The notes beneath the pieces were generated by a model. The model did not search any database. It was not told where the DNA came from and worked only from the letters and a program-made list of their open reading frames with translations. DNA of 64,000 bases, from assembly GCF_004010195.1 (NCBI RefSeq), contig NC_057718.1, forward strand, positions 96,316,686 to 96,380,685, written 5' to 3'. Shown here piece after piece: positions 358 to 62,065 of the stretch; the first letter of the stretch is position 1, and every line of letters begins with the position of its first letter. The translations under genes were made by a program, and so were the position numbers. This stretch comes from Chiloscyllium plagiosum (lineage: Eukaryota).

Positions 358-567
358 GAGGAAGGAAAGACTGCAGATGCTAGAGATCAGAGTCGAAGAA
401 TGTGGTGCTGGAAAAACACAGCCGGTCAGGCAGCACCCGACGAACAGGAGAATTGAGGCTTTAGGCATAAGCCCTTCCTGATGAAAGGCTTATACTCAAA
501 ATGTCGACTCCTGCTCCTCGGATGCTGTCTGACCGGCTGTGCTTTTCCAGCACCACATTCTTCGACT
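358..567. mobile_element. Fold-back Penelope-like terminal-repeat mini-element with degenerate hammerhead
   Basis: Inverted arms GAATGTGGTGCTGGAAAA..CAGCCGGTCAG / CTGACCGGCTG..CCAGCACCACATTC; CTGATGA at 478; flanking direct repeat CTTGGCTATA(G/A)TTTG at 343-357 and 568-582. Confidence 0.85.
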
Positions 568-806
568 CTTGGCTATAATTTGACAAATCCTGAGGGCAGT
601 TGGCACTTGAACCCAGATGTTCTGGCCCTGAGGTGCAATAATTATTTTTGATCTCAGCTGATAAATTGACCCACTGCCTGCCTGACAATTGAACATAGAG
701 TGCGCACAATCTCAAATACATTAGATGTATTTTAAAACTATGTTGAAAACTGGATGTAACCTTTCACAAAAAAAAAAGACTGGGAACAGGATTTCGTGAT
801 GATGGT

Positions 807-1095
807 TTTAGATTAGATTACTTACAGTGTGGAAACAGGTCCTTCAGCTCAACAAGCCCACACCGACCCGCCGAAGCACAACCCACCCAGACCCATTCCC
901 CTACACCTAAAACTACAGGCAATTTAGCATAGCCAATTCACCTAACCTACACATTTTTGGACTGTGGGAGGAAACCCATGCAGACACAGGGAGAATGTGC
1001 AAACTCCACACAGTCAGCCGCCTGAGGTGGGAATTGAACCTGGGTCTCTAGTGTTGTGACGTAGCAGTGCTAACCACTTTGCCACTGTGCGGCCC
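807..1095 (-). mobile_element. HE1-like tRNA-derived SINE
   Basis: Revcomp has a tRNA-like head (GTGGTTAGCAC..GGTTCAATTCC), body GGAGTTTGCACATTCTCCC, tail CCTGTTTCCACACTGTA plus short repeats; many copies in the window. Confidence 0.9.
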
Positions 1096-2589
1096 AGCAG
1101 TTAAATGGGGCTAACAGCACATTCTGGGTAAGCCATACAGGACCACAAGTTGAACTCAACCCTTCATTTTATTGCTTCTAGGATTTATCTTGAAAAGTGC
1201 AGAGGAATCTCTCGGTTTTGCAGCATTCCCGTCTAGCATGGATGTGCCTTTCCTTTGGAAACGTCCTGCCATCTGGTGGAGATATTTGTTTCATTATGTT
1301 TACTGATCATTAATCTCTCATTAGAAGTTCCTTCAATCTTTGCTGTTGGTTGTGGGGTTATCCTTTCTCCTTTATTATTAATCTCACTTCCTTTTCCGTG
1401 CACTGGTCATGCTTTTTGTGATACAGGACATGTCCCTTCAACTCAAATGTTTAAAACTCCCTGGTGTCCTGGGAGTTTTTGCCCTTTTCAAGAAAAGAGC
1501 GCATTCTTGTTACACTTTCGATGTCACTTGCAAACATGCCTCATTCCATTTCAACTCGAAAACGGGGTGAGTATGTATGGATGCTAAGAGAATCTTTATA
1601 ATCTCTAACATTTAACCTCTGGCCATTTTCTTCAGTTGGAGTGTGTTACAATCTGTCAGGAAGTCCAATTTGTTGTGGGAATGTGCACGTTCACATGCAC
1701 GCTGTAGCCTGGAGCTATGGATAATGTTGGCGGAGGCTTCAATGTTCTTTCCGTCACATGGCTGACCAGGAATCTCTCCTGCTGTCACCAGCTGCCTTTG
1801 GAGTGTGTTGGAAGAATTTGTAAGTTGACAGGCAACCCTGTCTGATTGTCTAATGTCACCCTTGTTCACCAGATCCTGGAGTACGTTTCTCATCTCATTT
1901 AGCAGCCATTGGCTTTCTCTGTTCCCTCCTTTCTAAACCATTGCCTGGCCAAATGGTCAAGCGGCAGGATGTTCTTGGTCCTCTGTCAGGTCTCAAAGGG
2001 AAACACATTATTTCGTCCTAATTTCCTCAGGCAGGAACTGCCCAATTTTACTTCCAAGGAAGGCAATCTATGAAGACATGTTGTACTTTGAACATCGTTT
2101 TCCTATAAATATCCATTAATTTGAGTTCCACAATTTCAAATTTGTAAGCGTCTTTTCTTCCAGTATCTTCAGGGAAAGGTGAAACATGCTTTTGGAAAAT
2201 GGGATTAGAATAGTTAGGTGGTTGTTTTTGACCAGTGGAGACTTGATAGGCCGAATGACCTTTTTCAGTGCTATAGACTTCTAGGAGTCTATCCTGATTG
2301 ACTTCGCAACTATTTTGAATCACTTAGACCACATTGCAATTAATGCTAATTTCAGGTGTCAATCCCAATTCTTGAGGACTCTATCACCCAGACACATTCA
2401 CCACATTCACCATCCACTTCCAACCCCTCTGAGCCTCCTCAACTCCTGTCAGTGTTCAATTTGTCTACATCAGCTGCTGAACTACCAATGTCTCCATTTT
2501 AAAACTTTCACCTTTGTTTCCCCATATTTTGTCTCCAACTCCTTCCATAACCCTCACTCTCTTTTTCACTGCAACTCTTGGGTATGTTA

Positions 2590-3362
2590 GCACTGTGGTT
2601 ATGTTGCTGCATTAGTGGCCTTGGTTAATGATGTTGGCGCTTGATTACAAATCTCACTGCAACACCTGTGGCATTGAAATTCAGTCAATTAAATAAATAG
2701 AGCAAGGACTTGTATAACGCCTTTAATAACATGCCACAAAACATTTCACAGGACCATAATCGAACAAAATTTGACACTGGGCCACAGAAAGAAACACAAT
2801 GGCCGACGACCAAAATTTTGAATAGAGTAGTCATCTTGAAATAGATTAAAGAAGTTTAAGGAGGGAACTTCAGAGCTTAGAACCTTAGCAGTTGAAGTCA
2901 TGGCCATCAATGGTGAAGCAATTATTATCAGGAACATTCAAGATGCCTGATTTAGATCAGAGCAGATATCATGGAAGGCTGTGGGGCTGGAGAAGATTGC
3001 AGAGAAATTGGGAAACAGCAAAGCTTGTGTTAATGATGGCTGCCATGTAACTGCAGGAATGTCATTAAAGATCATTATGTTCACTCAGTTAGGGGAAGGA
3101 ATTATGCCATCCTTAGCTGGCCCGTCATAAAAATTGCTCTCATTTAACAACAATATAATTGACTCTTAGCTGTCATCTGAAATGATGTGGCAAGTTGTAT
3201 TCAAGTCAAGTTGTATTCTGTTGTATTCAAGAAGGTGTGTGTGGCAAGTATCTCTGTTGTAGTCAAGAAGGCACATATACTGACACCTTCTTGAGGTTAT
3301 TTGAGGATGGACAAAAAATTCTGTCCTTGCCAATGACACCCACATCCCAAAAATGCATTAAA
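2590..3362 (+). mobile_element. Old SINE (second family) interrupted by an L2-like fragment (~2700-3020)
   Basis: Similar to 39600-40080 and 58170-59430 (GTTCACT..GGAAGGAA..GCCATCCTT; tail CACCCACATCCC); diverged. Confidence 0.55.
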
Positions 3363-3504
3363 AAGTGTCCTACCCTCTAACACTACAAGCCTGTGTAATT
3401 CTTTGGTCTGAGATGCTTTTAGTTCTGAAGGAGGACTTAGGATTGATTTCAACACCTTCAGATTGCAAATCCACTCCAATCCTTCCCTCTCTTTTAGTTT
3501 TACT

Positions 3505-3941
3505 CAGAGTCATAGAGTCATCGAGGCAGACAGAATGGAAGCAGACCCTTCAGTCCAACTCATCCATGCTGACCAGATATCCTAATCTAATCTAGTCCCG
3601 TTTGCTAGCACCCGGCCCATATCCCTCCAAATCCTTCCTATTCATACACCCATCCAAATGCCTCTTAAATGTTGCAATTGTATCAGCCTCCACCACTTCC
3701 TCTGGCAGCTCATTCCATACACGTACCACCCTCCGTGTGAAAAAGCTGCCCCATAGGTCCCTTTTAAATCTTTCCCCTCTCACCCTAATCCTATGCCCTC
3801 TAGTTCTGGACTCCCCCGACCCCAGGGAAAAGACCTTGTCTACTTATCCTATCCATGTCCCGCATGATTTTATAAACCTCCATAAGGTCAACCCTCAGCC
3901 TTCGGTGCTCCAGGGAAAACAGCCCCAGCCTTTTCAGCCTC
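3505..3941 (-). mobile_element. CR1/HER1-like LINE 3' fragment
   Basis: ORFs RLGLFSLEHRRLRVDLMEVYKIMR and FFTRRVVRVWNELPEEVVEA; (CATAGAGT)n tail. Confidence 0.92.
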
Positions 3942-4275
3942 AAACTACAGAGCATGGAGCTTGAATACCTACTGATAGTTGTTACATTCTCTGTCACCAT
4001 GCCTCCCCTCCCCTCTCCCCACCCCAGTGACACTGTCTGTTCTTTCCAGTCTGCTAGTTAGACGCACCATTGTTCTGTCATTCTCACATTCCGATTACTT
4101 AATCTGAATTATCAACACCCTTTCACCCCCAGCACTCCACCTCTCTCTGCCACTGCTGCCCCCTCCACACTTCATGTGAGCTCTATGAAGAGTCGTCTCG
4201 ATTCGAAAAGTTAGCTTGCTCTCTCTCCATGGATGCTGCCTGACCCACTGTGATCTCCAGTATTTTTTTGTTCTC
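3942..4275 (+). mobile_element. Penelope-like terminal-repeat fragment (subfamily shared with 23310-23735 and 34922-35120)
   Basis: Degenerate hammerhead ATGAAGAGTCGTCTCGATTCGAAAAGTT followed by GGATGCTGCCTGACC..CTCCAG tail. Confidence 0.7.
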
Positions 4276-4548
4276 TGATAGAAAGACTCTTCGTTCCTGA
4301 TCACCCGTGAAGAGATTAAACCCTGTGAAAATATCACGGTCAGCTTCAATTCGCCAGTGTTCAGTGGGAAGGGAGACAATATGTTACCCATCAGAGATCG
4401 CTCAAAGTAAGGCCTCCATGGTGCCAATATTAGTTGCCTCTGTGGAAGCCCATGCTTTTTCCCCCGAGGTCATATCCTTGGGAGTAGTTTGTGTATATCT
4501 ACTACATAATGTAATGGGATATGTGTTTGATTGTTTTGCTTTGAATTA

Positions 4549-10653: not shown

Positions 10654-11363
10654 GGTGGTCGAGAGTGTGGTGCTGGAAAAGCACTGCAGGTCAGGCAGCA
10701 TTCGAGGAGCAGAAGAATCGACGTTTCGGGCATAAGCCCTTCATCAGGAATGAGGCTTGTGGGCCGGGGCTGAGAGATAAATAGGAGGGGCTGGAGTTTG
10801 GGGTGGTCTGCTCTACACTGGGGAGAGAGGACGCCTTCTTGCGGATCATTTCAGGGAACATCTCTGGTACACCTGCACCCACCAACACCACCGCCCCGTG
10901 GCTGAACACTTCAACTCCCCCTCCACTCCATCAAGGACATGCAAGTCCTGGGCCTCCTCCACTGCCAAACCATGACCACTTGACGCCTGGAGGAAGAATG
11001 CCTCATATTCTGCCTTGGGACCCTGCAACCACACGGGATCAATGTGGATTTCAACAACTTCCTCACTTCCCTTCCCCCTAAATCATCCCAGTCCAAAGTC
11101 TCCAACTTGGCACCACCCTCCACACCTGTCCATCACTCCCCTCTCTGAACTATCACCTTCTCCCTCACCTTCATCCACCTATAGCTTTCTTAGATACCCA
11201 CCAGCCCCCTCCCATTTATCTCTCAGCCCCGGCCCACAAGCCTCATTGCTTATGCCCGAAACGTCGATTCTCCTGCTCCTCGGATGCTGCCTGACCTGCT
11301 GTGCTTTTCCAGCACCACACTCTCGACTCTGATCTCCAGCATCTGCAGTCCTCACTTTCTCCT
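10654..11363 (+). mobile_element. 5'-truncated Penelope-like element, GIY-YIG remnant plus inverted terminal repeat
   Basis: GIY-YIG homology to 63168-63680 over 10803-11070; inverted terminal repeat ~10657-10800 vs ~11200-11330; possible TSD CCGT(A/G)TA(T/C)CA. Confidence 0.9.
10720..10747 (-). ncRNA. Minimal type I hammerhead ribozyme core (intact)
   Basis: CTGATGA-A-GGGC-TTAT-GCCC-GAAAC-GTC: both conserved boxes, stem II, palindromic ACGT helix III, GUC triplet. Confidence 0.75.
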
Positions 11364-11469
11364 CCGTGTACCATATTATATTTTTCATTCAAGGAATTAA
11401 GCTACTGAGTGAATTTGTTCAAATTCCATTAAATGCTCACAATCCTCCCAAAATGGCCACCTGCATCAC

Positions 11470-17904: not shown

Positions 17905-18115
17905 CATCAGAGAAAACAGAAAAGATTGGAGAAACTCAGCGGGTCAGGCAACATCTGTGGTGAGAGAAACAGAGCCCAGAGCAAATGGAGTCCATAGAAT
18001 GATTATGCTAGGCTCAAAATGCTCACCCGGTTTTTCTCTCCAAAGACCTGCTGTGTTTTTCCAGTGTTCTCTGTGTTTGTTTCAGATTTACAGCATCTGC
18101 ACTATTTTGCTTTTA
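17905..18115. mobile_element. Old fold-back Penelope-like terminal mini-element
   Basis: GGAGAAACTCAGCGGGTCAGGC arm vs GACCTGCTGTGTTTTTCCAG arm; ATCATCAG at both flanks. Confidence 0.6.
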
Positions 18116-22837: not shown

Positions 22838-23576
22838 AATAAAAAGCAGTTAGCATCCTATTGGTCTCCAACATACAAAGAAATACAATGTAAAGGAAGT
22901 AAGATGGTTTACTCTTAACTCCTTCTCTCTCAGTCTTTCCCAAGTGTACTTCAGATGCATATTGACAGAAACTTATCTGGAATCTCTCACACATGGTTTT
23001 TATCTTATCTTTCTTGTACAATAACCAAAGACTGCATTTACATAGCTCCTTTAACATAGCAAAGTCTCCAAAGTTGCCTTGCAGGAGCATTGGAAAGCAA
23101 AGTGTAATTTCAGCTCCCATTAGGCACATATTACAGCACATGACCAACAGCCTGGTCGAAGGACAGTTGTGACAGAGAAAAGGGAGGCAGAGATGTTAGG
23201 GGATGAATCTGATATTTCAAGTGGTGGAAGACATAGTTACCAATAACAGAGTGAGTGAAAGTGAGATGTTAAAGATGTAAGAACTAAAGGGACACAGATA
23301 TGTGGAGGAGCAAATTACTGCAGATGCTGGAATGTGTATCGAAAAGAAACAATGTTGGAGATAACAACGGGTCAGGCAGCATCTGCGGAGAGAGAGCAAG
23401 CCAATCTTTCGAGACTAGATAAGACTAGAGATTCCAGATAAGTTTCTGTCAATATGCATCTGAAGTACACTTGGGAAAGACTGAGAGAGAAGGAGTCAAG
23501 AGTAAACCATCTTACTTCCTTTACATTGTATTTCTTTGTATATTGGAGACCAATAGGATGCTAACTGCTTTTTATT
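22838..23576. repeat. 150-bp inverted duplication (22838-22987 vs 23427-23576)
   Basis: Direct comparison shows 2 mismatches; the same peptide appears in ORFs 22821-23147(-) and 23471-23716(+). Confidence 0.95.
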
Positions 23577-24310
23577 GTGACTCTAACTGCCACACGGGAA
23601 AGGGCAGACAGTCCCACTGGGGTGGGGGGGGGGGGCGCAGAGAGGACATGGTGACAGAGAATGTAACAAGAAAAGCTAAAAGAAAGGGAAGGAATGGTAG
23701 TGGGCTTACAATCTGACGGATACCTTGGAGCCTTGTAGAATTGAAGGAGACAACCAAAACAAAGAGGGAAGGCAGGAGATTACAGCAACAGGGAGGAAGG
23801 AAACTGTGAAGACTCTGGAAAGCAGGACCAGAACTTTAAAGTCGGTCATCAACAGCTGTGAGCCAAATGCGAGTACAAGACTTGGTGAGAGTTTTTGGGT
23901 GACTGCACAGCTGTGGGAGGTCAGTCAGGAGTGTATCAGCATTGTCCAGCCTGAAACCCTCACCCATGCCTTTGTTACCAGGGGTAACGAAGGCATGGCT
24001 GAGGGTTTCAGAGTGGACGAACTGGGGCAGAGCAGTATTACAAAGGTAGAAGGCTGGTGTTAATGGTAGTCTGGCTATCAAGCTCAGCTCAAGGTTCAAT
24101 GCATCATTAAGGTTGCAAACTACCTAAGACTACCAGACTGATCAAGGCCAGGGAGAAGGATGGAGTTAGTAGCTGGGAATAGAGTTTGTACTGGGGACTG
24201 GAGACAATGGCTTTGACATTCCCAATATTTAGTTGGAGGAGATCAGCCAGTGCTGATGTTAAGCAAACAGCATAACAATTGAAAACAGGGGAGGAGTTAA
24301 GAGAGCTTGT
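23010..24310 (-). mobile_element. Old L2-like LINE 3' fragment interrupted by a Penelope-like terminal repeat (~23310-23735)
   Basis: TGCATTTACATAGCTCCTTTAAC L2-type end; degenerate body; PLE segment matches revcomp of 3942-4275. Confidence 0.55.
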
Positions 24311-26385: not shown

Positions 26386-26613
26386 ATTAAAATAAAGAAC
26401 TGCAGATGCTGGAAATCTGAAAGAAAAGCAGAAATTGCTAGCAAAGCTCAGCAGGTCCAGCAGCATCTACAGAGAGAGACACAGAGTTAATGTGTCATGT
26501 CCGGAGACTCTTCATCGGTTCTGATGAAGAGACACCAGACTTGAAATGTTAACTCTGCTTTCTCACCACAGATGCTTCCAGATCTGCTGAGTTTCTCCAG
26601 TAGTTTCTGTTTT
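26386..26613. mobile_element. Fold-back Penelope-like terminal mini-element
   Basis: Centre CTCTTCATCGGTTCTGATGAAGAG; inverted arms; flanks TGTAATTACAGG (26370) and TGTAATTATGGG (26614). Confidence 0.8.
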
Positions 26614-26829
26614 TGTAATTATGGGATATCTGGTTATGAAAGAAGCATTGCTATATCATCCTACAATGCTCTCACTGGGGCTAATTGTGATTATGACAAT
26701 GAAGAAGATATTGGATCAAGTACACATTGTATACCTCTGCTTATCGAAATAAAGATCCAGTGAGTTGTATAACAAAAATCCGATCCAATATTGTCCTTAT
26801 TTTATGTTATCACCCAAAATTAGACCCCC

Positions 26830-31032: not shown

Positions 31033-32788
31033 AAATCCACATTGATGCCCTGGGGTTGAAGTGTTTTGAGGTGGAAGATGAGGTGTTCTTCCTCCAGGCT
31101 TCAGGTGATGAGGGAACAGCGGTGGAGGAGGCCCAGGACCTGCATGGCCTCGGCAGAGTGGGAGGGGGATTTGAAATGTTGGGCCACGTGGTGGTGTGGT
31201 TGATTGGTGCGGGTGTCCCGGAGATGTTCCCTAAAGTGCTCTGCTAGGAGGGGCCCAGTCTCCCCAATGTAGAGGAGACCGCAGCGGGAGCAATGGATAC
31301 AATAAATGATATTGGTGGATGTGCAGGTGAAATTTTGATGGATGTGGAAAGCTCCTTTGGGGCCTTGGATGGAGGTGAGGGAGGAGGTGTGGGCGCAGGT
31401 TTTGCAATTCCTGTGGTGGCAGGGGAAGGTGCCAGGATGGGAGGATGGGTTGTAGGGGGTCGTGGACCTGACCAGGTAGTCACGGAGGGAACCGTTTTTG
31501 CGGAAAGCGGAAATGGGTAGGAAGGGAAATATATCCCTGGTGGTGGGGTCCGTTTGGAGGTGACGGGAATGTCTTCGGATGATGTGGTTTATGCAAAGGT
31601 TGGTAGGGTGGAAGGTGAGCACCGGGGGGTTCTGTCCTTGTTACGGTTGGAGAGGTGGGGTTTGAGGGCGGAGGGGCAGTATGTGGACCAGATGCATTGG
31701 AGGGCATTTTTTACAAACCCACCGACTCCCACAGCTACCTGGATTATACCCCTTCCCCCCACCTCCTGCAAAGATGCCATCCCGTATTCCCAATTACTCC
31801 ACCTCCGCCGTATCTGCTCCCAGGAGGACCAGTTCCACCACAGAACACACCAGATGGTCTCCTTCTTTAGAGACCTCAATTTCCCTTCCCACGTGGTTAA
31901 AGATGAACAGAACCCCCCTGGTGCTCACCTTCCACCTTACCAACCTTCACATCATCCGACGACATTTCTGCCACCTCCAAACGGACCCCACCACCAGGGA
32001 TATATTTCCCTCCCCACCCCTTTCCGCCTTCCACAAAGACGGTTCCCTCCGTGACTACCTGGTCAGGCCCACGCCCCCCAATAACCCACCCTCCCTTCCT
32101 GGCACCCTCCCCTGCCACCACAGGAATTGCAAAACCTGCACCCACACCTCCTCCCTCACCTCCATCCAAGGCCCCAAAGGAGCCTTCCACATCCATCAAA
32201 GTTTTACCTGNNNNNNNNNNNNNNNNNNNNNNNNNNNNNNNNNNNNNNNNNNNNNNNNNNNNNNNNNNNNNNNNNNNNNNNNNNNNNNNNNNNNNNNNNN
32301 NNNNNNNNNNNNNNNNNNNNNNNNNNNNNNNNNNNNNNNNNNNNNNNNNNNNNNNNNNNNNNNNNNNNNNNNNNNNNNNNNNNNNNNNNNNNNNNNNNNN
32401 NNNNNNNNNNNNNNNNNNNNNNNNNNNNNNNNNNNNNNNNNNNNNNNNNNNNNNNNNNNNNNNNNNNNNNNNNNNNNNNNNNNNNNNNNNNNNNNNNNNN
32501 NNNNNNNNNNNNNNNNNNNNNNNNNNNNNNNNNNNNNNNNNNNNNNNNNNNNNNNNNTACTCTTTGCTACCTTCCCCCACCCTCCTCTCTGACCTATCAC
32601 CTCCATCCCCATTCACCCACTGTACTCTTTGCTACTTTCTCCCCAACCCCCACCCCCTCTCATTTATCTCTCCACCCTGCAGGTTCCCTGCCTCTATTCC
32701 TGATGAAGGGCTTTTGCCCAAAATGTCGATTTGCTTGCTTCTCGGACGCTGCCTGACCTGCTGTGCCTTTCCAGCACCACTCTAATCT
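31033..32788. mobile_element. Penelope-like element(s): minus-strand part 31033-31700 and plus-strand part 31710-32788, diverging
   Basis: ORF 31101-31622(-) IIYCIHCSRCGLLYIGETG (GIY-YIG); plus strand YKPTDSHSYLDY, IPYSQLLHLRRICS, CHHRNCKTC; terminal repeat with degenerate hammerhead at 32700. Confidence 0.92.
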
Positions 32789-36090: not shown

Positions 36091-38004
36091 GTAGGAAGAC
36101 AATATAGTACAATATATATAATAGTCATTCATTAGTATGAGCAAATGTTCACATTTCAGATTGTTAGAATTAATATTAACACATCCCTATTTGGGATTTT
36201 TTCCCCATGTATGAGCCTTCAATAAGTCAAAAGATCAAAAATCAGAGACCGCCTGTAAGAACATTCTAGAAGCAGTACTGTAGTTTTTTTGTATCTCAGA
36301 ATTTTTGTACATAAGATGGCTTCATCTGTGGTGCCATTAGACACTCTTTCACTGTACTTCAGTACTTGTGACAATTAAATCTAAGATTGTACAACATGTA
36401 AGATTCACACGTTACAAATCAAAGCAATGGGTCACATGAAAGTCAGACTTCGCGAATTCTTATCCTCTTTTAAGATCGAGACTTTGAGAAAAATCTGCAC
36501 GCTTTGCAGGTTATGATACTTCTTCAACTCAGAAGAATTTTTTTTTGTCAATATCTTCCTAAGGTTTCAGCTTGGGTCTTGCCAGTCATTGTTCCCTGGA
36601 CTGTTGTGGCCACCTGAACTTATTTGGTACAGTTTGAGAAAAATACAAAGAATCCATATGGCTCTGTCACGCAGTTCCATGACAGATATTCCAAAACCAT
36701 CCTTCCTGTGAATAGACACTGTGTTTCTCTGACCAAAAGAAACAAAAAAAAAATCCGCTGAGAGGTTAATGAAAAGTTGCTCACATGTGAAAATGATCTT
36801 AGTGTAAGGCTTTTATAAGCCACAGCTGCAATGCTTATTTACTTTGGCGCAACTACCACCGCTGTTATACAGATAATGGTCCACACGTTTTGTTCGATAA
36901 GCCCCATCCTGCAGAAGCAGATGCTTGAAGGCTGCTCCCCACAAACTGAATGTTCTCCTGGCTGTTGTCAAATCTTTACAGACGTTTGTTTACCCTTTCT
37001 TAAACTAGGTGCTGGATCCTCCTTTCTTTGCCAGTGTGTTTCAATCATCAATTAGTTTATTTGTCTGCCATTCAGTTGCTCGGTTCTAACAACGTTGTTA
37101 CCTGACGTATTGATTGTTACATTTCTGTAATTGATCTGTGCTACGTGACATCATGCTGCGTTACAGATGGTGCACACAGATTGACGATTTGCACTATACA
37201 TCGAACTGTTATGGCGCCCATCTGTTATGCAGCTGGGATTCGCTTGCACACAACCCTTGCAGTTTTGTGTGGAGGGAAGGCTTCACATACACTCTCATTG
37301 TATGTCTGTTTCCTAACCATCGTTTACTTTCTGTCAGGTAGCTTACCGCACTTCTTTCCAATTTAGTGCTTCCATTGATGCGCATGAAAAGGACGGTGTC
37401 CACGGGCAACAGGCAATAAACCCTCAACGGAAATCAAATTCTGAAGAAGTGCACAATTGCCTTCCCTTCAACGCCTGGAAATGTGCTGGAGGAAGTTTAA
37501 TTGAGGCTTTCAAGGGGGCTGTGGATGTGGTTTTTTGGATAGTAATGGTTTGCAGAGATATAGGGAAACATCAGGAGTTAAGTAACAGAGCCAGACTAGA
37601 TAATAGAACCAGTGCATGCACTTCTGCACCTTAATAATTCTGTGAATTCTATTATTCTATGATTTTTTTTTCTCATCTGATGAACGCATTATCTCAAGCG
37701 GCTTATAACAGTGAATCACTGGACACACTTCACACAAAGAGTGGAGAATATCTGGACCTTCCCCTCCCCATGCTATGTTGCAAATGGAGGGGTATTATAA
37801 ATGCAGAAAATGCTGCAAGTTCTCAGCAGGTCAGGCAGCCTCTGTGGAGAGAGACAAACAGGGTCAGTCGTTCAAATTTCTTCAGAAAATCTGTTCCTCT
37901 GACCACAGGTATTATTGGATCTGCTGGGCATTTTCTGTCTTCAGTTCAGATCTGTAGCAATCATGGTACTTTGCTATTGGTAGATCTTAATTGGTCAGAG
38001 CATC

Positions 38005-38228
38005 AAGAGAGAAAAAGTGTGGCGCTGGGAAAGCACAGCAGGTCAGGCAGCATCCGAGGAGCAGGAGAGTTGACGTTGAGAGCATAAGCTCTTCATCAGG
38101 AATGATGAAGTGCTTGTGCTCAAAATGTTGACTCTCCTGCTCCTCAGATGCTGCCTGACCTGCTGTGCTTTTCCAGCACCGCAATTTTTGAATCCGATCT
38201 CCAGCATCTGCAGTCCTCACTTTCTCCT
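38005..38228. mobile_element. Fold-back Penelope-like terminal mini-element (an older one lies at ~37795-37975)
   Basis: Centre CTTCATCAGGAATGATGAAG; arms AAAGCACAGCAGGTCAGGCAGCATC / GATGCTGCCTGACCTGCTGTGCTTT. Confidence 0.85.
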
Positions 38229-41932: not shown

Positions 41933-42436
41933 CAAGGACTGGGGGGGGCTGTTGAAACTGCCAAGGACCAAGGGCCTGTTGAACTACTGAGAACCAGGGG
42001 CCTGTTGAAACTGCCGAGGACCAGGGGCCTGTCGAAACTGCCGAGGATGGGGGGGCCTGTTGAAACCGCCGAGGACCAGGGGCCTGTTCAAACTGTCGAG
42101 GACCAGGGACCTGTTGAAACTGTCATGAACTTGGGACTGTTGAAACTGTCGAGGACCAGGAGCCTGTTGAAATTGTCAAGGACCAGGGGCCTGTTCAAAC
42201 TGTTGAGGAGCAGGAGCCTGTTCAAACTGTCGAGGACCGGGATTGTGTCGAAACTGTTGAGGACGGAGGCCTGTTGAAACTTTTGAGGAAAAGGGGCCTA
42301 TCGAAACTGCTGAGGATGGGGGGGGCCTGTTGAAACTTCTGAGGATAGGGGGCCTGTTGAAACTACTGAGGACCAGGGCCTATCGAAATTGCTGAGGACC
42401 AGGGCCTGTTGAAACCGTCGAGGACCAGGGCCTGTC
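41933..42436. repeat. 27-bp minisatellite, about 18 copies
   Basis: Unit GAGGACCAGGGGCCTGTTGAAACTGYC. Confidence 0.95.
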
Positions 42437-44686: not shown

Positions 44687-44980
44687 GGGTGACATGGTGG
44701 CTCAGTGGTTAGCACTGCTGCCTCACAGCGCCAGGGACCTGGTTTCAATTCCTGCCTCAGGCAACTGTCTGTGTGGAGTTTGCACATTGCCTGCGTGGGT
44801 TTCCTCCAGGTGCTCTGGTTTCCTTCCACAGTCTAAAGATGAGCAGGTTAGGTGAATTGGCCATGCTAAATTGCCTGTAGTGTTAGGTGCATTAGTCAGG
44901 GGGATGGGTTGCCCTTTAGAGGGTGGGTGTGGACTTGTTGGGCTGAAGGGCCTGTTTCCACACTGTAGGGAATCTAATCA
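44687..44980 (+). mobile_element. HE1-like SINE
   Basis: Full head and tail, as in the other copies. Confidence 0.92.
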
Positions 44981-45074
44981 TATCATTTTGCAAACTCTTA
45001 ACTTTCTCTTCAAAACTTAATTTCCCACCTACCTTTACGTATTGACAAATTTGGCAATTAATCCAAGTCATTGA

Positions 45075-45372
45075 ATAGAATAGAATCCCTACAGTGTGGA
45101 AACAGGCCCTTCAGCCCATATTGACCCTCCAAAGAGTAACCCGCCCAGAACAATTCCTCTACATTTACCCCGACAAATGCACCTAACCTATACATCCTTG
45201 AACACTATGGGTAATTTAGCCTGGCCAAATCACCTAACCTGCACAGCATTGGATTGTGGGAGGAAACCCACGCAGACACAGGGAGAATGTGCAAACTCCA
45301 CACAGACAGTCGCCCAAGGCTGGAATTGGACCCAGGTGCTGTGAGGCAGCAGTGCTAACCACTGAGCCACCG
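45075..45372 (-). mobile_element. HE1-like SINE
   Basis: Full head and tail; inverted relative to 44687-44980. Confidence 0.92.
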
Positions 45373-50855: not shown

Positions 50856-53800
50856 ATAGAACATAGAACATTACAGCGCAGTACAGGCCCTTTAGCCCTC
50901 GATGTTGCACTGACCTGTGGAACCAATTTGAAGCCCATCTAACCTACACTGTTCCATTATCATCCATATGTCTATCCAATGACCATTTAAATGCCCTTAA
51001 AGTTGGCGAGTCTACTACTATTGCAAGCAGGTTGTTCCATGCCCCGACTACTCTCTGTGTAAAGAAACTACCCCTGACATCTGTCCTATATCTATCACCT
51101 CTCAATTTAAAGCTATAGCCATCACCATCCGAGGAAAAAGGCTCTCACTGTCCACTCTATGTAATTCTCTGAATATCTTATATGTCTCAATTAAGTCACC
51201 TCTCAACCTTCTTCTCTCGAACTAAAACAACCTCAAGTCCCTCAGCTTTCCCTCGTAAGACCTTCCCTCCATACCAGGCAACATCCTAGTAAATCACCTC
51301 TGAACCCTTTCCAAAGCTTCCACATTTTTCCTATAATGCGGTGACCAGAACTGTACGCAATACTCCAAATCTGGCTGCACCAGAGTTTTGTACAGCTGCA
51401 GCATGATCTCACGGTTCCAAAAGTCAATCCCTTTTGAAGGGATTGTATGCCTTCTAACAACACTTTCAACCTGGGTGGCAACTTTCAAGGATCTATGTAC
51501 CTGGATACAGATCCCTCTAGGAGAAAGTGAGGACTGCAGATGCTGGAGATCAGAGCTTAAAGATGTGTTGCTGGAAAAGCACAGCAGGTCAGGCAGCATC
51601 AAAGGAACAGGAGAATCAACATTTCGGGCATAAAGGGCTTATGCCCGAAACATCAATTCTCCTGTTTCTTTGATGCTGCCTGACCTGCTGCGCTTTTCCA
51701 GCAACACATTTTTAAACAGAGATCTCTCTGCTCATCTACACTGCCAACAATCTTATCATTAGCCCAGTACTCTGCATTCCTGCTGCTTCTTCCAAAGTGA
51801 ATTACCTCACACTTTTCCACATTAAACTCCATTTGCCACCTCTCAGCCCAGCACTGCAGCTTATCTATATCCCTTTGCAACCTATAACATCCTTCATCAT
51901 TATCCACAACTCTACCGATCTTAGTGTCATCCCACATTAAACTCCATTTGCCACCTCTCAGCCCAGCACTGCAGCTTATCTATATCCCTTTGCAACCTAT
52001 AACATCCTTCATCATTATCCACAACTCTACCGATCTTAGTGTCATCTGCAAATTTACTGACCTATCCTTCTATGCCTTCATCCAGGTCGGTTATAAAAAT
52101 GACAAACAACAGTGGACCCAAAACAGATTCTTGCAGTACCCGAACTGAATTCCAGGATGAATATTTTCCATCAACCACCACCCTCTGTTTTCTTTCAACT
52201 AGCCAATTTCTGATCCAAATCACTAAATCACCCTCAATCCCATGCCTCCATATTTTGTACAATAGCTGCCATGGGGAACCTTATCAAATGCATTACTGAA
52301 ATCTATCCACACCAACGGCTTTACCCTCATCCACCTGTTTGGTCACCTTCTCAAAGAACTCAATAAGGTTTCTGAGGCATGACCTACCCTTCACAAAACT
52401 ATGTTAACTATCCTTAATCAACTTATTCCTTTCTAGATGATTATAAATCCTATCTCTTATAACCCTTTCCAACACTTTACCCACAACNNNNNNNNNNNNN
52501 NNNNNNNNNNNNNNNNNNNNNNNNNNNNNNNNNNNNNNNNNNNNNNNNNNNNNNNNNNNNNNNNNNNNNNNNNNNNNNNNNNNNNNNNNNNNNNNNNNNN
52601 NNNNNNNNNNNNNNNNNNNNNNNNNNNNNNNNNNNNNNNNNNNNNNNNNNNNNNNNNNNNNNNNNNNNNNNNNNNNNNNNNNNNNNNNNNNNNNNNNNNN
52701 NNNNNNNNNNNNNNNNNNNNNNNNNNNNNNNNNNNNNNNNNNNNNNNNNNNNNNNNNNNNNNNNNNNNNNNNNNNNNNNNNNNNNNNNNNNNNNNNNNNN
52801 NNNNNNNNNNNNNNNNNNNNNNNNNNNNNNNNNNNNNNNNNNNNNNNNNNNNNNNNNNNNNNNNNNNNNNNNNNNNNNNNNNNNNNNNNNNNNNNNNNNN
52901 NNNNNNNNNNNNNNNNNNNNNNNNNNNNNNNNNNNNNNNNNNNNNNNNNNNNNNNNNNNNNNNNNNNNNNNNNNNNNNNNNNNNNNNNNNNNNNNNNNNN
53001 NNNNNNNNNNNNNNNNNNNNNNNNNNNNNNNNNNNNNNNNNNNNNNNNNNNNNNNNNNNNNNNNNNNNNNNNNNNNNNNNNNNNNNNNNNNNNNNNNNNN
53101 NNNNNNNNNNNNNNNNNNNNNNNNNNNNNNNNNNNNNNNNNNNNNNNNNNNNNNNNNNNNNNNNNNNNNNNACAGCTTCCTCCCTGCCTGACCGGTACAT
53201 ACTTATCAAGGACATGCAGTAGCTGGTCCTTGAATAAGCTCCACATTTCAACTGTGCCTGTCCCCTGCAGTTTCCTTCCCCATCCTATGCATCCTAAATC
53301 TTGCTTAATCGCATCATAATTGCCTTTCCCCCAGCAATAACTCTTTGCCCGATGCTACATACCTATCTCTTTCCATCACTAAAGTAAACATAACCGAATT
53401 GTGGTCATTATCACCAAAGCGCTGACTCACCTCCAAATCTAACATCTGGCTGAGTTCATTACCCAGTACCAAATCTAATGTGGCCTCACCCCTTGTTGGT
53501 GTGTCTACATACTGTGTCACAAAACCCTCCTGCACACATTGGACAAAAACTGAACTATGTAAAGTACTTGAACCAGAGTATTTCCAGTCAATATTTGGAA
53601 AGTTAAAGTCACCCATAACTTCTACCCTGTCACTCTCGCTCCTATCCAGGATCATCTCTGCAATCCTTTCCTCTACATCTCTGGAACTATTCAGAGACCT
53701 ATAGAAAACTCTAGACAGGGTGACCTCTCCTTTCCTGTTTCTAATCTCAGCCCATACTACCTCAGTTGACAAGTTCTCAAAAGTCCTTTCTGCCACCATA

Positions 53801-55823: not shown

Positions 55824-56010
55824 ATTTTGGAGATGCCTGTGTTGGACTGGGGTGTACAAGGTTAAAAATCACACAACACCAGGTTATCGTCCAAAAGGTT
55901 TAATTGGAAGCACACTAGCTTTCGGAGCGTCACTCCTTCATCAGGTGGTTGTGTGCTAGTGTGCTTCCAATTAAACCTGTTGGACTATAACCTGTGTGAT
56001 TTTTAACCTT
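55824..56010. mobile_element. Fold-back Penelope-like mini-element (CUA family)
   Basis: Arms ~55860-55919 and ~55956-56008; TTTTTCCTT at 55815-55823 and 56011-56019. Confidence 0.85.
55916..55944 (-). ncRNA. Minimal type I hammerhead ribozyme core (intact)
   Basis: CAC-CTGATGA-A-GGAGT-GAC-GCTCC-GAAAG-CTA-GTG. Confidence 0.7.
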
Positions 56011-56879: not shown

Positions 56880-57040
56880 CCTGTGACCATAGCCCATCCC
56901 ACTCAGCTTGGACCTACTGACCACTGGCTGTCCTGCTCAGCTCGGGCCTACTGACCATTGGCCATCCCGCTGAGCTCAGGCCTACTGGCCATTGGCCATC
57001 CCGCTCAGCTCGGGCATACTGACCGCTGGCCATCTCAGTC
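56880..57040. repeat. ~34-bp minisatellite, about 5 copies
   Basis: CTACTGACCATTGGCCATCCCGCTCAGCTCGGGC. Confidence 0.85.
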
Positions 57041-58299
57041 TGCGCTGGCTCACCAGTCAATGATTGCCTGTTGCACACCCTGCACCTTGCAAGTTTCTTG
57101 ATCTGGATGGCAGTGCTGTACGCATTGCATTCCTGCTCATGTCCCATTCAATCTCCATCATCCTCCTCACCGCCAAGACTGGTGGGCTGGAAGAGGTTAT
57201 TTTTCACCTTTCAGCTGCTGGGAGAGAATTCATTTCAGGCAGGTCATTTGAAACAGTAGGTAGCCTTTCTGCCTCTGAGCCACATCAGCTCTGGGTTCAG
57301 GTCCCTCAGAATCAAATGGCCACCAAAGATGCAAATCCTTTGTGTGTTCCTATGGTAGGTGTTAAGAATGGGTGAACCTTCTGATCAGCCAGAACTGTAT
57401 AGTCAATGCCATGCAACAGTCTCATCTTATCAATAGATGCCCCTTGTTAGGTTTTGCTACGGGTTGCACTCTGTTGCAAGTGTCTTCCTTGTTTATCAGA
57501 AGAAACCAATTTCTAATCTAAATATCGAAATTCCAGCGACCACATTTTAAATAACGATCAGAAGCAGGATTTCCAACAGACTCTTTCAGGGAAGGAGATT
57601 CCCCAATGAAAAATCGAGGCTGGAAAATTACCTCCCCAATATGGTCCAAATGAATAACATTAAGGAATGGCTTTCAGCAGGGGACCAGTGTGACTGCCCT
57701 CAATGCAAGGCACATGATCACTTTTCAATGCGTTGCTTGAACCATTGTCGCCTCTGTTTTAACCATGCATATATATGAACAGGAAAGCATATTCCCTGCA
57801 AGAGGGTCAAGTATTATATTTCCAATTCTGCCTACGGTCCATCGGAATATCAGTCGAGGAAATCAAAATTGCATCGCTTCCTGCTAAAACCATTACTTTG
57901 ACCACCGTGCAATGAGCCATTGCTATTGATGATCTCGTATCACAGAGAAATGTGGAGAGAAAGTAAAATAAAAGTTTCAAGCAGCTTAAATTACTAATTG
58001 CCTTCATTGACAGAGGTGATAAGGTACAGACTAAGCGCTACTTTATTTCAGACGTTAATGACTTTATTTAGTAAGAAGTATGTATGTACCATGTACAGTT
58101 CGGACCGTTGCATGAAAGATGCATTATTTGACTCTTCCAGCTGAGGAACTAAGGGTCTATTAACTACCATCAAAACATTGTTGATCGTCAGACAAACCCA
58201 TCTGGTTCACTCATGTCCTTTTGCGAAGGAAATTTTTATTCAATCCCTACAGTGTGGAAACAGGACCTTCGGCCCAACAAGTTATAATTTTGAGAGATA

Positions 58300-58572
58300 C
58301 AGGATCTATTTGCCGTGCTGTCAGATGAGGTGTCAATAGATCATGAAGAGGTCAAACAGGTTATTTTAAGTGCTTATGAATTGATACCAGAAGCATTTAG
58401 ACAACGGGTCAGAAACACAAAGAAGGAACCAGGTCAGACTTATGTTGAGTTTTAAATAATTAAACATAATCATCTTGATCGATGGGTGTGTGCTTTTAAA
58501 ATAGATAGGACCTTTGAGGCTCTATGAGAGATTATTCTGCTGAAGGAGTTTAAAAACACTTTTCCAGAGATG
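58300..58572 (+). pseudogene. Gypsy (Gmr1-like) gag fragment with SCAN-like capsid region, two stops
   Basis: Manual translation FAVLSDEVSIDHEEVKQVILSAYELIPEAFRQRVRNTKKEPGQTYVEF*..LDRW..EAL*EIILLKEFKNTFP. Confidence 0.88.
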
Positions 58573-58791
58573 ATGCATGTATGGAAGGAGCTGCCAGAGG
58601 AAGTGGTGGAGGTTGGTACAATTACACTGTTTAAAACACATCTGGATGGGTATATGAATAGGCAGGGTTTGGAGGGATATGGACTAGATGCTGGCAGGTG
58701 GGACTAGATTGGGTTGGGATATCTGGTCAGCATGGATGAGTTGGACCAAAGGGTCTGTTTCCATGTTGTACATCTCTATGACTATGACTCT
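58570..58791 (+). mobile_element. CR1/HER1 3' end
   Basis: GTATGGAAGGAGCTGCCAGAGGAAGTGGTGG..CTCTATGACTATGACTCT, close to 15596-15822. Confidence 0.92.
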
Positions 58792-59128
58792 AAGTCCACA
58801 CCGACCCTCCAAAGAGTAACCCACCCGGACCCATTTCCCCTACTCTATATTTACCCCGACTAATGCACCTAACCTACACATCCCTGAACACTATGGGCAA
58901 CTTAGCATGGCCAATTCACCTGACCTGCATATCGTTGGACTGTGGGAGGAAACCGGAGCACCGGAGGAAACCCACACAGACACAGGGAGAACTCCACACA
59001 GACAGTTGCCCGAGGCTGGAATTGAACCCAGGTCCCTTGCACTGTGAGGCAGCTGTGCTAACCACGGAACCACCATGCCATCCCTGAAACCTGCCATCCT
59101 GACTTGGTCTGGCCTACATGTGACTCCT

Positions 59129-59320
59129 TTGAGGAGAAAGTGAGGTCTGCAGATGCTGGAGATCAGAGCTGAAAATGTGTTGCTGGAAAAGCGCAGCAGG
59201 TCAGGCAGCATCCAAGGAACAGGAGAATCGACATTTCGGGCATAAGCCCTTAAGAACGTCGATTCTCCTGTTCCTGGATGCTGCCTGACCTGCTGCACGT
59301 TTCCAGCAACACATTTTCAG
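59129..59320. mobile_element. Fold-back Penelope-like mini-element with perfect 15-bp TSD
   Basis: CTACATGTGACTCCT at 59114-59128 and 59321-59335; inverted arms. Confidence 0.9.
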
Positions 59321-59737
59321 CTACATGTGACTCCTGTCCCAAAACAATGTGGTTGACTTTTAACTACCCTCTGGGCAATTAGGGATGGGCAATATATGCC
59401 GTCTAGCCCACATCCATGAGTGAATAAAACAAATGATGAAAATAGCTGGAGATAGCAAGGCAAATGAAATAATATTCTTGACTTACATTTATATAGTACC
59501 CTTCACAGCATCAAAATGTACCAAAGTGCATTTCAGACTTCCCAAATTAATTTTGAAATGTAGTCACTGACAGGAATAATAATCTCACTTTTGGAAGTAT
59601 AGTAGATCAGGTAAGGACAGCAGGTTTCCCAGAAGATTAATGTTCCCCGGGTCTCTGGTAGTCCAGTGATAATACCATCACCTTCCCTAATCTGTCCCAA
59701 TGGATACTGGGAGGAGGCTGCCCAGATTATCAGTTCA

Positions 59738-60040
59738 TAGATACCCAACAATGTGGAAGCAGGCCAATCAGCCCACACCAACCCTCTGAAGACCCTCCTA
59801 GCCCCCTATATTATCTCTTCATTTCCCATGGCTAACCCACCGAGACTGCACACTATGGGCAATTTTGCATGGCCCATCCACTAACCTTTGGACTGTGGGA
59901 AGAAAACAGAATACCCCAGAGAAAACCTGCCCAGACACAAGGAGAAATGTGCAAGCTCCACACAGACAGTCACCTGTAGGTGGAATCGAGCCCATGTCCC
60001 TGGCGCTGTGAGGCAGCAGTGCTAACCACTGTGCTGCAGC
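59738..60040 (-). mobile_element. HE1-like SINE
   Basis: CTCCACACAGACAGTCACC..GGCAGCAGTGCTAACCAC. Confidence 0.85.
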
Positions 60041-61324
60041 TGCCCCCACTCTGTGATTGTCAAATGGCACATGTTGTTCCTGAGCTCTTTCCACGACGTT
60101 GTCAACTTGGGGAAGTTCCTGCAGCATAAGGGATGGCTAATAATATAATCACAACGCTCCAGCCTTCAAGAAATGCACTGGGTTATTCTGACGAGAGCTA
60201 TCACCTCTGCATAACATCGCAAAGGAATTTGGAAGGAATCATGGTCTGACAAGGTGCTTGTGAGTTTATTAATCCCACAGGTAGGAGCAACATATAGTGT
60301 GCTTGGGCAAGTTGTATCCTGAATGAAATCGCCATTTTATAATGAGTCACCTTTTACTTTAAACTCCTGATCCAGGGTCGTGTATACTTAGGTCATTCAT
60401 TCATGAGTTCTGTTTATTTCCTGCTGATTCATCCTGGGAAGAGCATTCTTGTTTAGAGTTACATTCTGTGAATTGTTCTTGTTTGATCTTATGAAGGAAT
60501 CAATTTTATGTCAGAATCTTTTGCTTATTAATTGTGCAGAAATACATTGCCCTATTAAAACATATTAAGCAAAATATCTGTCATATTAAACTGTAGATTC
60601 GTACCACATGTGCATTCTGATCCCTTGCCACATCAGCCTTCTGTCATAGAGTATACTTCACCATTGACAAGATCACTGAGCTCAATCAACGTTCTTTTTT
60701 TTTCCCTGTTGTACACATTAAGAAGCCATTTCAGTTATTTTCTTATCCTTCTAGAATCCAAGAAGCAAATTCCTTCCTAAGCAAGATATGGGTCAGGTTT
60801 TCCGGTCTCCGGATGGTCAGAGACTGGGGAACGTCTGAGGCTGTGCATCAGGTTTATATAACAGTCACAATGTGTACTCTGATTGGGAATTCCCCAACTG
60901 CTGATGGGCAATTCCCCTGCTCCCTATGATCTTCCGTAAAGTGCCTCCCGTTCCAAGGTACAGCCAAAACATTTGGACAGTTCCATGCGGTTTACCATGG
61001 AGATATTAAAATCTGTATGGGCATCATCATAACTGACTCCCACCTCCAAACACCTGAACCCCGTCACTACTCTACCCTACTCTACCCTCTGAATTACCCT
61101 TCTCTCCGAACCCTGACTGTCCACTCATTTAAAGTGCATCTGACCATTGATCCATCTCTCAAACAGCTACACCCAGATCTCCTGAAAGCCATCAGGTCTG
61201 ACCCAACCGAACCTTGACCAGGCCTGACTAGTCTCTCAGTATGACCTAACTAGCACGCTGACAAAACTACCATCCCCAGCTAGACTTGACTATGCCTCTG
61301 AGTTAATCTGAAACTTCCCCGATA

Positions 61325-61790
61325 CAATCTGACCCTGCCCCTGACTCAATCTGACCCTGCCCCTGACTGAATCTGACCATGGCCCTGACTCAATCTGACC
61401 CTGCCCCTGACTCAGTTTGACCATGGCCCTGACTCAATCTGACCCTGCCCCTGACTCAATCTGACCCTGCCCCTGACTCAATCTGACCCTTCCCCTGACT
61501 CAATCTGGCCCTGGCCCCTGACTCAATCTGCCCCTGCCCCGACTCAATCTGACCCTGCCCCTGACTCAATCTGACCCTGCCCCGACTCAATCTGACCCTG
61601 GCCCTGACTCAATCTGACCCTGCCCCTGACTCAATCTGACCCTGCCCCTGACTCAATCTGACCCTGGCCCCGACTCAATCTGACCCTGCCCCTGACTCAG
61701 TTTGACCATGGCCCTGACTCAATCTGACCCTGCCCCTGACTCAATCTGACCTTGCCCCCTGACTCAATCTGACAATGCCCTAATTCAATC
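61325..61790. repeat. 22-bp minisatellite, about 20 copies, with degenerate flanks
   Basis: Unit TGACCCTGCCCCTGACTCAATC. Confidence 0.95.
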
Positions 61791-61848
61791 CAAAGTCCTC
61801 CCCAACCACACGATGAGCTTCCAACTCAGTCTGACGATCCCCGACTAG

Positions 61849-62065
61849 AAAAAGAACTGTAGATGTTGGAATCCAAAGTAGACAGGCAGAAGGCTGGAAG
61901 AGCACAGCAAGCCAGGCCTCATTAGGAGGTGGAGAAGTCAATGTTTCAGGTTTAACCCCTCCTGAGTCTTGAAGAAGGATTATAAGGAAACATCTACTTC
62001 TCCACCTCCTGATGCTGCCTGGCTTGCTGTGTTCTTCCAGCCTCCTGCCTGTCTACTTTGACTTT
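61849..62065. mobile_element. Fold-back Penelope-like mini-element
   Basis: Arms CAAAGTAGACAGGCAG..AGGAGGTGGAGAAG / CTTCTCCACCTCCT..CTGCCTGTCTACTTTG; flanks CCCCGACTAG / CTCTGACTAG. Confidence 0.82.

Follow-up and report, generated by a model that had tools for sequence, protein, structure and literature searches.

In L1 twin priming, both strands of the target serve as primers, and joining of the two resulting cDNAs, frequently at microhomology, produces an inversion. Each arm represents a different part of the RNA, and the poly(A) is the starting point of one of them. In LTR elements, minus-strand strong-stop DNA is primed near the RNA 5' end and runs off at a fixed position, and a jump is needed to copy the rest.

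The canonical unit of endonuclease-bearing (EN+) Penelope-like elements (PLEs) consists of adjacent inverted pseudo-LTRs (pLTRs) and an optional tail of 30–40 bp, as described in PMC3846280 and PMC8557442; the inverted-repeat-plus-tail layout is already published. Arkhipova et al. 2013 (PMC3846280) attributed the head-to-head repeats to self-priming on an antisense template. For PAc, a Poseidon element of the green anole, in vitro reactions show that both target strands are cut and extended, that two internal reverse transcriptase (RT) start sites bracket the tail, which lies at the ORF start, and that uncleaved RNA is the main template; a dimer is predicted (Frangieh et al. 2024, PMC11167929). 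The main text of that paper contains no discussion of inverted insertions, target duplications or the RNA 5' end. Our data bear on how PLEs acquire inverted repeats and tails and on the role of their hammerheads, questions raised by PMC8557442, PMC3846280 and PMC11167929.

Here we analyse hairpin insertions in a 64,000-nt stretch of Chiloscyllium plagiosum DNA (the window) and in a sample of the genome. The hairpins resemble the canonical EN+ PLE unit in the head-to-head repeat, the tail on one arm, the target-site duplication (TSD), the hammerhead motif and the RT-GIY-YIG parent, but they are reduced to two repeat ends, and both arms stop at a common zone. We consider it probable (about 60%) that they are minimal EN+ PLE insertions, made from twin-primed cDNAs that ran to the RNA 5' end and were then joined.

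Hairpin insertions in the window

A self-search of the window returned nine local inverted matches, compared with none in each of ten shuffles. The seven clear hairpins reported in the initial annotation (at 358, 26386, 38005, 51520, 55824, 59129 and 61849) were all found where it had placed them, and its estimate of about four subfamilies agrees with the four families recovered, namely A (358, 38005, 51520 and 59129), B (55824), C (26386) and D (61849). One arm of the window hairpins is always without the tail, a feature that the annotation had missed.

Junctions are given on a scale on which p=0 is the first base past the predicted cut and the CUGA core begins at p-27 to -30, and they are written as tailed arm/tailless arm. 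The family A hairpin at 358–567 (minus strand) has a tailed arm at 358–473, with its element sense on the minus strand, and a tailless arm at 475–567. Its CTGATGA box lies at 478, its junction is p-19/-31, and the copy-specific variant reported to be common to both arms is visible in the sequence. The left TSD (343–357, 15 bp) matches the right TSD (568–582) with one mismatch. The other family A hairpins lie at 38010–38228 (plus; junction about 38105–38108, p-21/-34), 51519–51726 (minus; junction 51633–51636 in stem II, p-16/-19) and 59129–59320 (minus; junction 59251–59255, p-22/-6), the last flanked by a perfect 15-bp TSD (59114–59128 and 59321–59335). The family B hairpin at 55824–56010 (minus; junction 55953–55955, p-38/-4) has an intact core at 55944 on the minus strand. 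The family C and family D hairpins lie at 26386–26614 (minus; junction 26516–26518, p-28/-32) and 61849–62062 (minus; junction 61961–61965, p-22/-31), respectively. These measured junctions match the turns that had been placed in or near the hammerhead. Clear 15-bp TSDs are present at 358 and 59129, and those of the other five are degenerate or short.

Two older hairpins had also been proposed. The one at 17905 is confirmed by both arms (E down to 3e-11 and 2e-14) as an old degraded family C hairpin at 17906–18101 (plus; arms 17913–17974 and 18044–18101). The one at 37795 stands in part: the old family C remnant at 37799–37933 (no strand assigned) has a clear left arm at 37799–37852, but its right arm is weak (E about 0.5).

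A long form with the same layout occupies 10658–11364 (plus), with a tailless inverted arm to p-84 followed by a sense arm from p-485. The sense arm carries a GIY-YIG remnant, the repeat and the tail; this copy is absent from the initial list. The window also contains an unpaired, 5'-truncated family A copy at 63015–63686 (minus), which comprises the GIY-YIG end, 3' region, core at 63142, body and tail and has a 15-bp TSD.

Parent element and ribozyme motif

All four families were also found joined to GIY-YIG remnants, in agreement with the PLE terminal-repeat origin that had been proposed. EN remnants lie upstream of family B, C and D repeats, and copy L124 contains a 561-aa open frame that matches RVT_1 (E 1.4e-8) and GIY-YIG (E 5e-4; its 20.7 bits fall short of the 22.6 cut-off). 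The order in the parent ORF is RVT_1, linker and GIY-YIG. A CX2-5CxxC linker of the Neptune/Nematis type, a motif described for these clades in PMC8557442, precedes the endonuclease in L124 as well as in families B and D; PAc, in contrast, belongs to Poseidon. Copy L117 runs past the tail into conserved element sequence, as expected for a tail that leads into the ORF start.

A hammerhead core, stem II and palindromic stem III are present in families A–D. The motif was called from the CUGANGA...GAAA pattern together with these two stems, according to the minimal-hammerhead description in PMC4209133, and the cut site is a motif-based prediction. A search against Rfam returned no hammerhead, just weak miRNA-like scores below gathering thresholds. 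The hallmarks of an EN+ PLE found here are a single ORF with RT and C-terminal GIY-YIG, a hammerhead motif, a one-sided tail, an inverted 5' copy and a TSD.

Abundance and layout of the hairpins

A sample of 1.34 Mb spread over the genome contains 104 head-to-head pairs, which extrapolates to roughly 280,000 per genome; pairing was limited to a 900-nt extension and a 1.8-kb span, so that long pairs are undercounted. The pairs have a median length of 196 bp, and 97 of the 104 are shorter than 270 bp. One tailed and one tailless arm are found in 87/104 pairs and in 44/49 of the better-preserved ones. The tail is about 35 nt long, with tailless ends near p+52–68 and tailed ends near p+91–98. TSDs of at least 10 bp (median 15) flank 29 of 31 young pairs, compared with 14 of 300 random flanks. 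The hairpins are real, that is, they are head-to-head pairs of PLE terminal-repeat ends inside a TSD of about 15 bp. Such a number of near-perfect palindromes of about 200 bp would matter for annotation, as they are MITE-like and give weak miRNA-precursor scores, and as a possible source of double-stranded RNA.

Unpaired copies comprise 44 tailed and 50 tailless ones, and several of the latter have their own TSDs.

Both arms mostly stop at the 5' edge of the hammerhead core

Among the 98 paired arms that reach p-27, 85 stop by p-43, within 17 nt, and none of the remaining 13 stops in the next 17 nt (p-60 to -44). When unpaired copies are added, 120/167 stop in the zone and 0/47 in the next 17 nt; 12 tailed and 23 tailless unpaired copies end there. 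The stop zone, p-43 to -27, is about 15 nt wide, not one base. Core ends were also counted by motif, independently of the pair-based counts. In family A, 56 of 86 cores end 0–15 nt upstream of CUGA, none ends at 16–28 nt, and 30 continue; in family B, 21 of 33 end 0–13 nt upstream and none at 14–24 nt. The zone tracks the core in all four families, and unpaired copies share it.

As a length control in 87 pairs, 29 tailed and 44 tailless arms stop in the zone, compared with only 5 and 2 at positions shifted by 35 nt. Because tailed and tailless arms stop at one and the same position on the template, length is not the cause. The non-random convergence of breakpoints over families, claimed initially, holds after this control, with the 5' edge of the motif as its focus.

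The wall could in principle be artefactual, if long palindromes had disappeared through deletion in vivo or during assembly: assembly gaps exist, some of them beside PLE copies, and the pairing limits undercount long pairs. We regard this as very improbable, however. Among 65 pairs with stems of at most about 80 nt, 37 reach the zone, none stops at p-60 to -44 and 5 go beyond. The same boundary is seen in unpaired copies and in raw reads, where element boundaries lie at p-32 (95 reads) and p-28 (89 reads, a pile that may be clipped by reference mismatch).

Very young copies with the ORF start were considered as full-length 5' ends and rejected, as 10/12 have one and the same starting base next to an assembly gap; the remaining two share one flank. 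They are uninformative and probably gap-edge artefacts.

The initial annotation had offered self-cleaved RNA as the template, namely the 3' fragment left when the ribozyme cuts itself. Ends are slightly enriched near the predicted cut (18 within 3 nt, compared with 11 and 9 in the adjoining bins), but the excess is weak at most (p=0.05), and some of these ends are internal deletions. Sequence upstream of the cut (at least 5 nt) is kept in 92/99 pairs, and in vitro insertion products are reported in PMC11167929 to be unchanged by ribozyme mutants. A variant is possible in which the 5' piece remains paired and RT jumps onto it. The insertion set argues against cleaved RNA as the template, an idea that is largely refuted and to which we give very little credence.

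The stop hazard climbs already over the ribozyme, with 53/151 arms stopping at p-26 to -10, so trimming or stalling is required too. This steady climb and the zone that follows the core in four families would fit twin priming on a longer RNA on which the zone is a roadblock, formed for example by a folded or dimerised ribozyme, by a protein on the RNA or by processing at helix I. In addition, the sites listed for the mapped family A and B reads include none at which many RNA molecules begin. A splice acceptor is known from the 5' end of helix I in D. virilis, and in families C and D an AG precedes the core by 2 nt. Nevertheless, most arms stop at the far edge, having passed the whole fold; the local ribozyme fold is weak (z between -1.1 and +1.0); and no copy stops in the 17 nt beyond the zone. 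A spliced first exon ahead of the wall was rejected, as 35 zone-ending unpaired copies have no common upstream sequence (longest match 9 nt). We regard a roadblock as unlikely, though worth considering.

A sharp start at an initiator motif that precedes the core by 4 nt was likewise rejected: about one-third of short family A copies pass this motif, and family B is without it.

In Drosophila virilis, the intron starts 46 nt past the start and is 75 nt long. Its 3' end, the splice acceptor, lies at the 5' end of helix I (PMC4209133). The RNA therefore does not start at the ribozyme in that species, which counts against a run-off at this edge.

The two arms share source variants and almost all junctions are unique

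At a roughly 50/50 site, 47/47 undeleted pairs agree between their arms, and 27 unbiased pairs have 56 variants common to both arms, compared with 17 ± 5 after shuffling. The proposal that both arms came from one template is thus supported by shared source variants, although later conversion could also cause the concordance.

The other option that had been suggested is a non-autonomous hairpin element, which would have been amplified from a small number of master copies. The recurrence check was run on the junctions, which are nearly all unique rather than identical; no junction was found more than twice among 99 unbiased pairs, so the hairpins are not an amplified element. Similar junctions do recur among the best matches to one query, and a 1-nt deletion occurs at one site in 9 tailless and 0 tailed arms. 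However, eight of these nine were selected by the query and the ninth is the query itself, copies with the deletion differ in junction, and the same junction occurs on different subfamily backgrounds (L003 and L007). We judge amplification to be extremely unlikely. From the initial interpretation, the PLE repeat origin, the convergence and the single source of the arms are retained, whereas the self-cleaved template and the amplified class are not.

The arms differ in how far they extend. The tailless arm reaches further 5' in 54/99 pairs (by at least 10 nt in 39 of them), the tailed arm in 39/99, and both are equal in 6/99. This bears on self-priming, in which one strand, either a single cDNA or the antisense RNA of the PMC3846280 proposal, would fold back at the ribozyme stems and the endonuclease would trim one end, leaving the tail. 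Such a route has a published proposal for head-to-head repeats in its favour, as well as the shared source variants and a junction microhomology above chance (mean 1.45 compared with 0.61; 20 gap-free pairs of 46). Eight of these 20 junctions have zero microhomology, however, and tailless unpaired copies, several with their own TSDs, show the same wall. In the 54 pairs above, moreover, the tailless arm has sequence missing from the tailed arm, which alone has the tail. Each arm thus holds sequence that the other lacks, so a later deletion would have to be assumed for either to be a plain copy of the other, and because either arm may reach further 5', a single fold-back cannot yield both. The asymmetry disfavours the antisense self-priming of PMC3846280, and this large natural insertion set favours twin priming over it; we consider self-priming improbable.

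A proposed model of twin strong-stop cDNAs

In the preferred reading, in which twin-primed cDNAs run off at the RNA 5' end, each strand of a target cut with a stagger would prime RT at one of two start sites bracketing the tail, probably in the upstream repeat copy. Both cDNAs would run to the 5' end of an uncleaved RNA, probably just upstream of the hammerhead core, so that the stop zone would correspond to this end. The two cDNA ends may then be trimmed to some extent and joined by end-joining. The in vitro facts used here come from a Poseidon-clade element, not from families A–D. Long copies could arise if synthesis jumped from the stop zone to the 3' copy of the repeat or was primed there directly; jumps out of the zone into downstream sequence are seen in L322, L303, L184 and L306. 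The model predicts RNA 5' ends 0–15 nt upstream of the CUGA core.

Unlike the arms of an L1 inversion, the two hairpin arms represent one and the same stretch, copied from two fixed internal sites, which gives a palindrome. The hairpins work like L1 twin priming but are not a member of it, as their arms do not come from non-overlapping RNA parts. As in LTR strong-stop synthesis, priming would lie near the RNA 5' end, with a presumed run-off at a fixed point and a jump needed to copy the remainder; the primer, however, would be target DNA rather than tRNA, and the short product is integrated. A poly(A) site within the family B repeat appears to be used. Neither the measured wall nor twin strong-stop cDNAs were found in the literature searched; older subscription papers may already propose twin priming.

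More tentatively, the PLE pseudo-LTR may be a true U3-R-U5, with the RNA starting at the hammerhead 5' edge and ending in the downstream copy before the RT start sites, a possibility that we hold less likely than the model itself. Its 3' end would be formed either by polyadenylation at p+30 or by ribozyme cleavage. As such an RNA ends before the RT start sites, one complex would prime both target strands at the 5' copy, and an obligatory jump of the two strong-stop cDNAs through the ribozyme-bearing R region would be needed to copy the ORF. If so, hundreds of thousands of hairpins would be fossils of strand transfers that failed, and the function of the ribozyme would lie in defining the acceptor end.

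In family B, 829 reads have poly(A) at p+28/+31, inside the repeat, and may be host transcripts; the loose read ends listed for family A include no poly(A) site inside the repeat. Family B reads give no clean evidence for the wall, and their loose ends at 1588 and 1631 were rejected as such evidence, being subfamily differences. The ORF start of family A is barely covered (depth at most 8, compared with 200–800 on the repeat).

Non-LTR retrozymes are likewise described as short, hammerhead-bearing and derived from PLE terminal repeats, with monomers among them (Li et al. 2026, 10.64898/2026.07.22.740005). Retrozymes, as described there, are head-to-tail tandem units, whereas the hairpins are head-to-head with unique junctions. 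Tandem units of the repeat that makes up the hairpins occur separately (L312 and L317).

Hairpins in the window

Nine local inverted matches are found in the window, compared with 0 in each of 10 shuffles. The seven clear hairpins of the initial annotation are present, starting at 358, 26386, 38005, 51520, 55824, 59129 and 61849, and, consistent with its estimate of about four subfamilies, they sort into four sequence families of Penelope-like element (PLE) terminal repeats, A–D. Of its two older copies, 17905 has both arms and 37795 has a single clear arm. The junctions lie where it had placed them, at p−38 to p−4, where p=0 is the first base 3' of the predicted cut and the hammerhead core starts at p−27 to p−30.

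Fifteen further PLE repeat copies in the window are unpaired (families A–D; 4197, 5480, 7803, 9810, 13574, 17323, 20170, 27030, 32698, 34219, 34951, 44093, 45951, 48395 and 50698), and several end just upstream of the hammerhead core, at p−43 to p−27, hereinafter designated the wall. An internal PLE ORF fragment at 31033–32210, bordered by assembly gaps, contains a 310-bp inversion. A 150-bp inverted duplication of apparently unique sequence (22838–23576; 99%) adjoins a PLE repeat remnant (23317–23420) at its inner end, and a 75-bp palindrome at 23944–24018 occurs just once in the window and does not evidently match a PLE. A SINE-like repeat pair at 44696–45371 is inverted and ~66% alike. A short tandem array at 42300–42420 (26–29-bp units) contains three CTGANGA...GAAA matches, which are likely chance or minisatellite.

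Hammerhead motif and parent elements

The repeats presumably resemble those of other cartilaginous fish. Each family carries a minimal hammerhead pattern, namely CUGANGA, stem II, GAAA and a palindromic stem III. An Rfam search returned no hammerhead match; the pattern fits the minimal PLE motifs in PMC4209133. Genomic copy L124, outside the window, encodes RVT_1, a Cys linker and GIY-YIG in an open frame of 561 aa, with family A repeats downstream, and endonuclease remnants also lie upstream of family B, C and D repeats. In another copy, L117, the repeat does not end with the tail but is followed by conserved sequence of the element, interpreted as the beginning of the ORF; the anole element has the same arrangement. 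The parents are EN+ PLEs with a Neptune/Nematis-type linker. A 3-kb head-to-head PLE arrangement (L141:5324-6373 and L141:3365-5323) has arms just 71% identical and is probably a young copy within or beside an old one.

Abundance and anatomy of inverted pairs

From the 3.56-Gb genome, 139 stretches of 10 kb (1,335,496 called bases) were picked blind at preset intervals along the 34 largest contigs, and arm ends were resolved by anchored alignment to ten natural copies. The sample contains 104 inverted pairs (~78 per Mb) with a median span of 196 bp (<270 bp in 97/104), very long-armed pairs being undercounted. Extrapolation from these large contigs gives ~280,000 pairs genome-wide (Poisson range 226,000–330,000).

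In 87 of the 104 pairs, a ~35-nt tail is present on one arm and absent from the other. Target duplications of young pairs have a median of 15 bp, reach at least 10 bp in 29/31 (compared with 14/300 random flanks) and are slightly AT-rich (35% GC versus 41%). Inverted repeats with a tail and a target duplication have already been described for PLEs (PMC3846280, PMC8557442 and PMC6765202); the hairpins are a real, abundant variant of this known insertion structure. Five two-tail pairs were left out, and among the remaining 99 no junction occurs more than twice, which argues against the earlier suggestion of an amplified hairpin element.

The proposal that both arms came from one template is supported by their concordance. 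Specifically, the arms agree at a roughly even subfamily-diagnostic site in 47/47 undeleted pairs and have 56 variants in common, versus 17 ± 5 in shuffles (27 unbiased pairs). This points to a putative single RNA or source locus; later conversion could also produce it. Microhomology averages 1.45 nt versus 0.61 expected (20 gap-free junctions, 46 better-preserved pairs).

A 1-nt deletion at p+14 occurs in tailless arms only (9/56, query-selected), with differing junctions (window 59262–59290, L004, L006, L020, L021, L023, L024, L027 and L029). In L009, L010 and L026, the inverted arm lacks all 16 nt of stem II, with the skip falling between short direct repeats, as would result from a polymerase jump over the hairpin.

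Arm stops peak at the 5' edge of the ribozyme motif

Sequence upstream of the predicted cut is retained in 92/99 pairs, which argues against self-cleaved RNA as the template, as had been suggested. Arm stops do not centre on the cut site: 18 ends lie within 3 nt of it, versus 11 and 9 in adjacent bins (p=0.05). Stop frequency instead climbs across the ribozyme and peaks at its 5' edge. Of paired arms reaching p−27, 85/98 end by p−43 and 0/13 in the next 17 nt; with unpaired copies included (249, of which 95 met identity, score and edge filters), the figures are 120/167 and 0/47. A separate motif-based count is concordant for families A and B, C and D copies being too few (8 and 3). Several tandem copies jump from the wall to sequence downstream of the tail, and other such jumps start at p−46 to p−101.

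Although tailed and tailless arms start 35 nt apart, they share one stop position on the template, and a length limit therefore does not account for the wall. The wall recurs in pairs with short stems, in unpaired copies and in raw reads and is therefore not due to loss of palindromes in assembly. Breakpoints are thus non-uniform and enriched near the hammerhead, and their convergence reflects a mechanism, as the initial annotation suggested.

A proposed twin-priming model

In PMC11167929, both target strands are cut and extended by an anole PLE, reverse transcription starts at two internal sites flanking the tail, and the template is mainly uncleaved RNA, with a dimer predicted. By analogy, a staggered target cut would leave 3' overhangs and both sides would prime, giving two antisense cDNAs that face each other within the duplication, one tailed and one tailless. 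This predicted layout is the one observed. The tailless arm reaches further 5' in 54 pairs and the tailed arm in 39, and unpaired copies are both tailed and tailless; a single fold-back is insufficient to account for this without later deletions.

For the one-sided wall, the simplest cause would be a template end, by inference the point within the upstream repeat copy where the RNA begins. Against such a position, D. virilis transcripts begin ~120 nt 5' of helix I and an intron intervenes (PMC2377424 and PMC4209133). Family A and B read alignments also have no position, among those listed, where many molecules begin. The main rival to a template end is a roadblock at the ribozyme. The literature searched, with key subscription papers outside its coverage, contains no report of the wall or of PLE twin priming.

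A poly(A) site in family B

A lead in support comes from one single-cell poly(A) run, with the same species label as the best-matching DNA runs. Most family B reads 5' of the ribozyme are element sense, and 829 element-sense poly(A) reads end at p+31 (459) or p+28 (370), 12–15 nt past an ATTAAA/AATAAA hexamer found in 25/26 matched sample copies (repeat L238:1559-1579, element sense; the same hexamer lies in window 55824–56010). Family A has no comparable site among the listed loose ends.

The site lies 3' of the ribozyme and 5' of both reverse transcription start sites. Were PLE mRNAs to terminate at this position, the start sites would lie in the 5' repeat copy only, implying a strong-stop-and-jump cycle, which we regard as rather unlikely. 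Alternatively, the reads may derive from host transcripts that terminate within embedded copies. Family B copies may be a source of host-transcript 3' ends.

Tandem units

Non-LTR retrozymes are tandem units (10.64898/2026.07.22.740005), whereas the hairpins are head-to-head. Retrozyme-like units arranged head to tail, of 224 bp or similar size and comprising a hammerhead, a body, a tail and an ORF start, occur at L312/L313 and L317/L318 (also L319, L327 and L100); one junction is common to two loci separated by 10 Mb. Identical units with a 308-nt period (L305, L328–L339) mostly start at one base next to an assembly gap; the probable explanation is an artefact at gap edges involving a very young subfamily, although they may be a young non-autonomous element.
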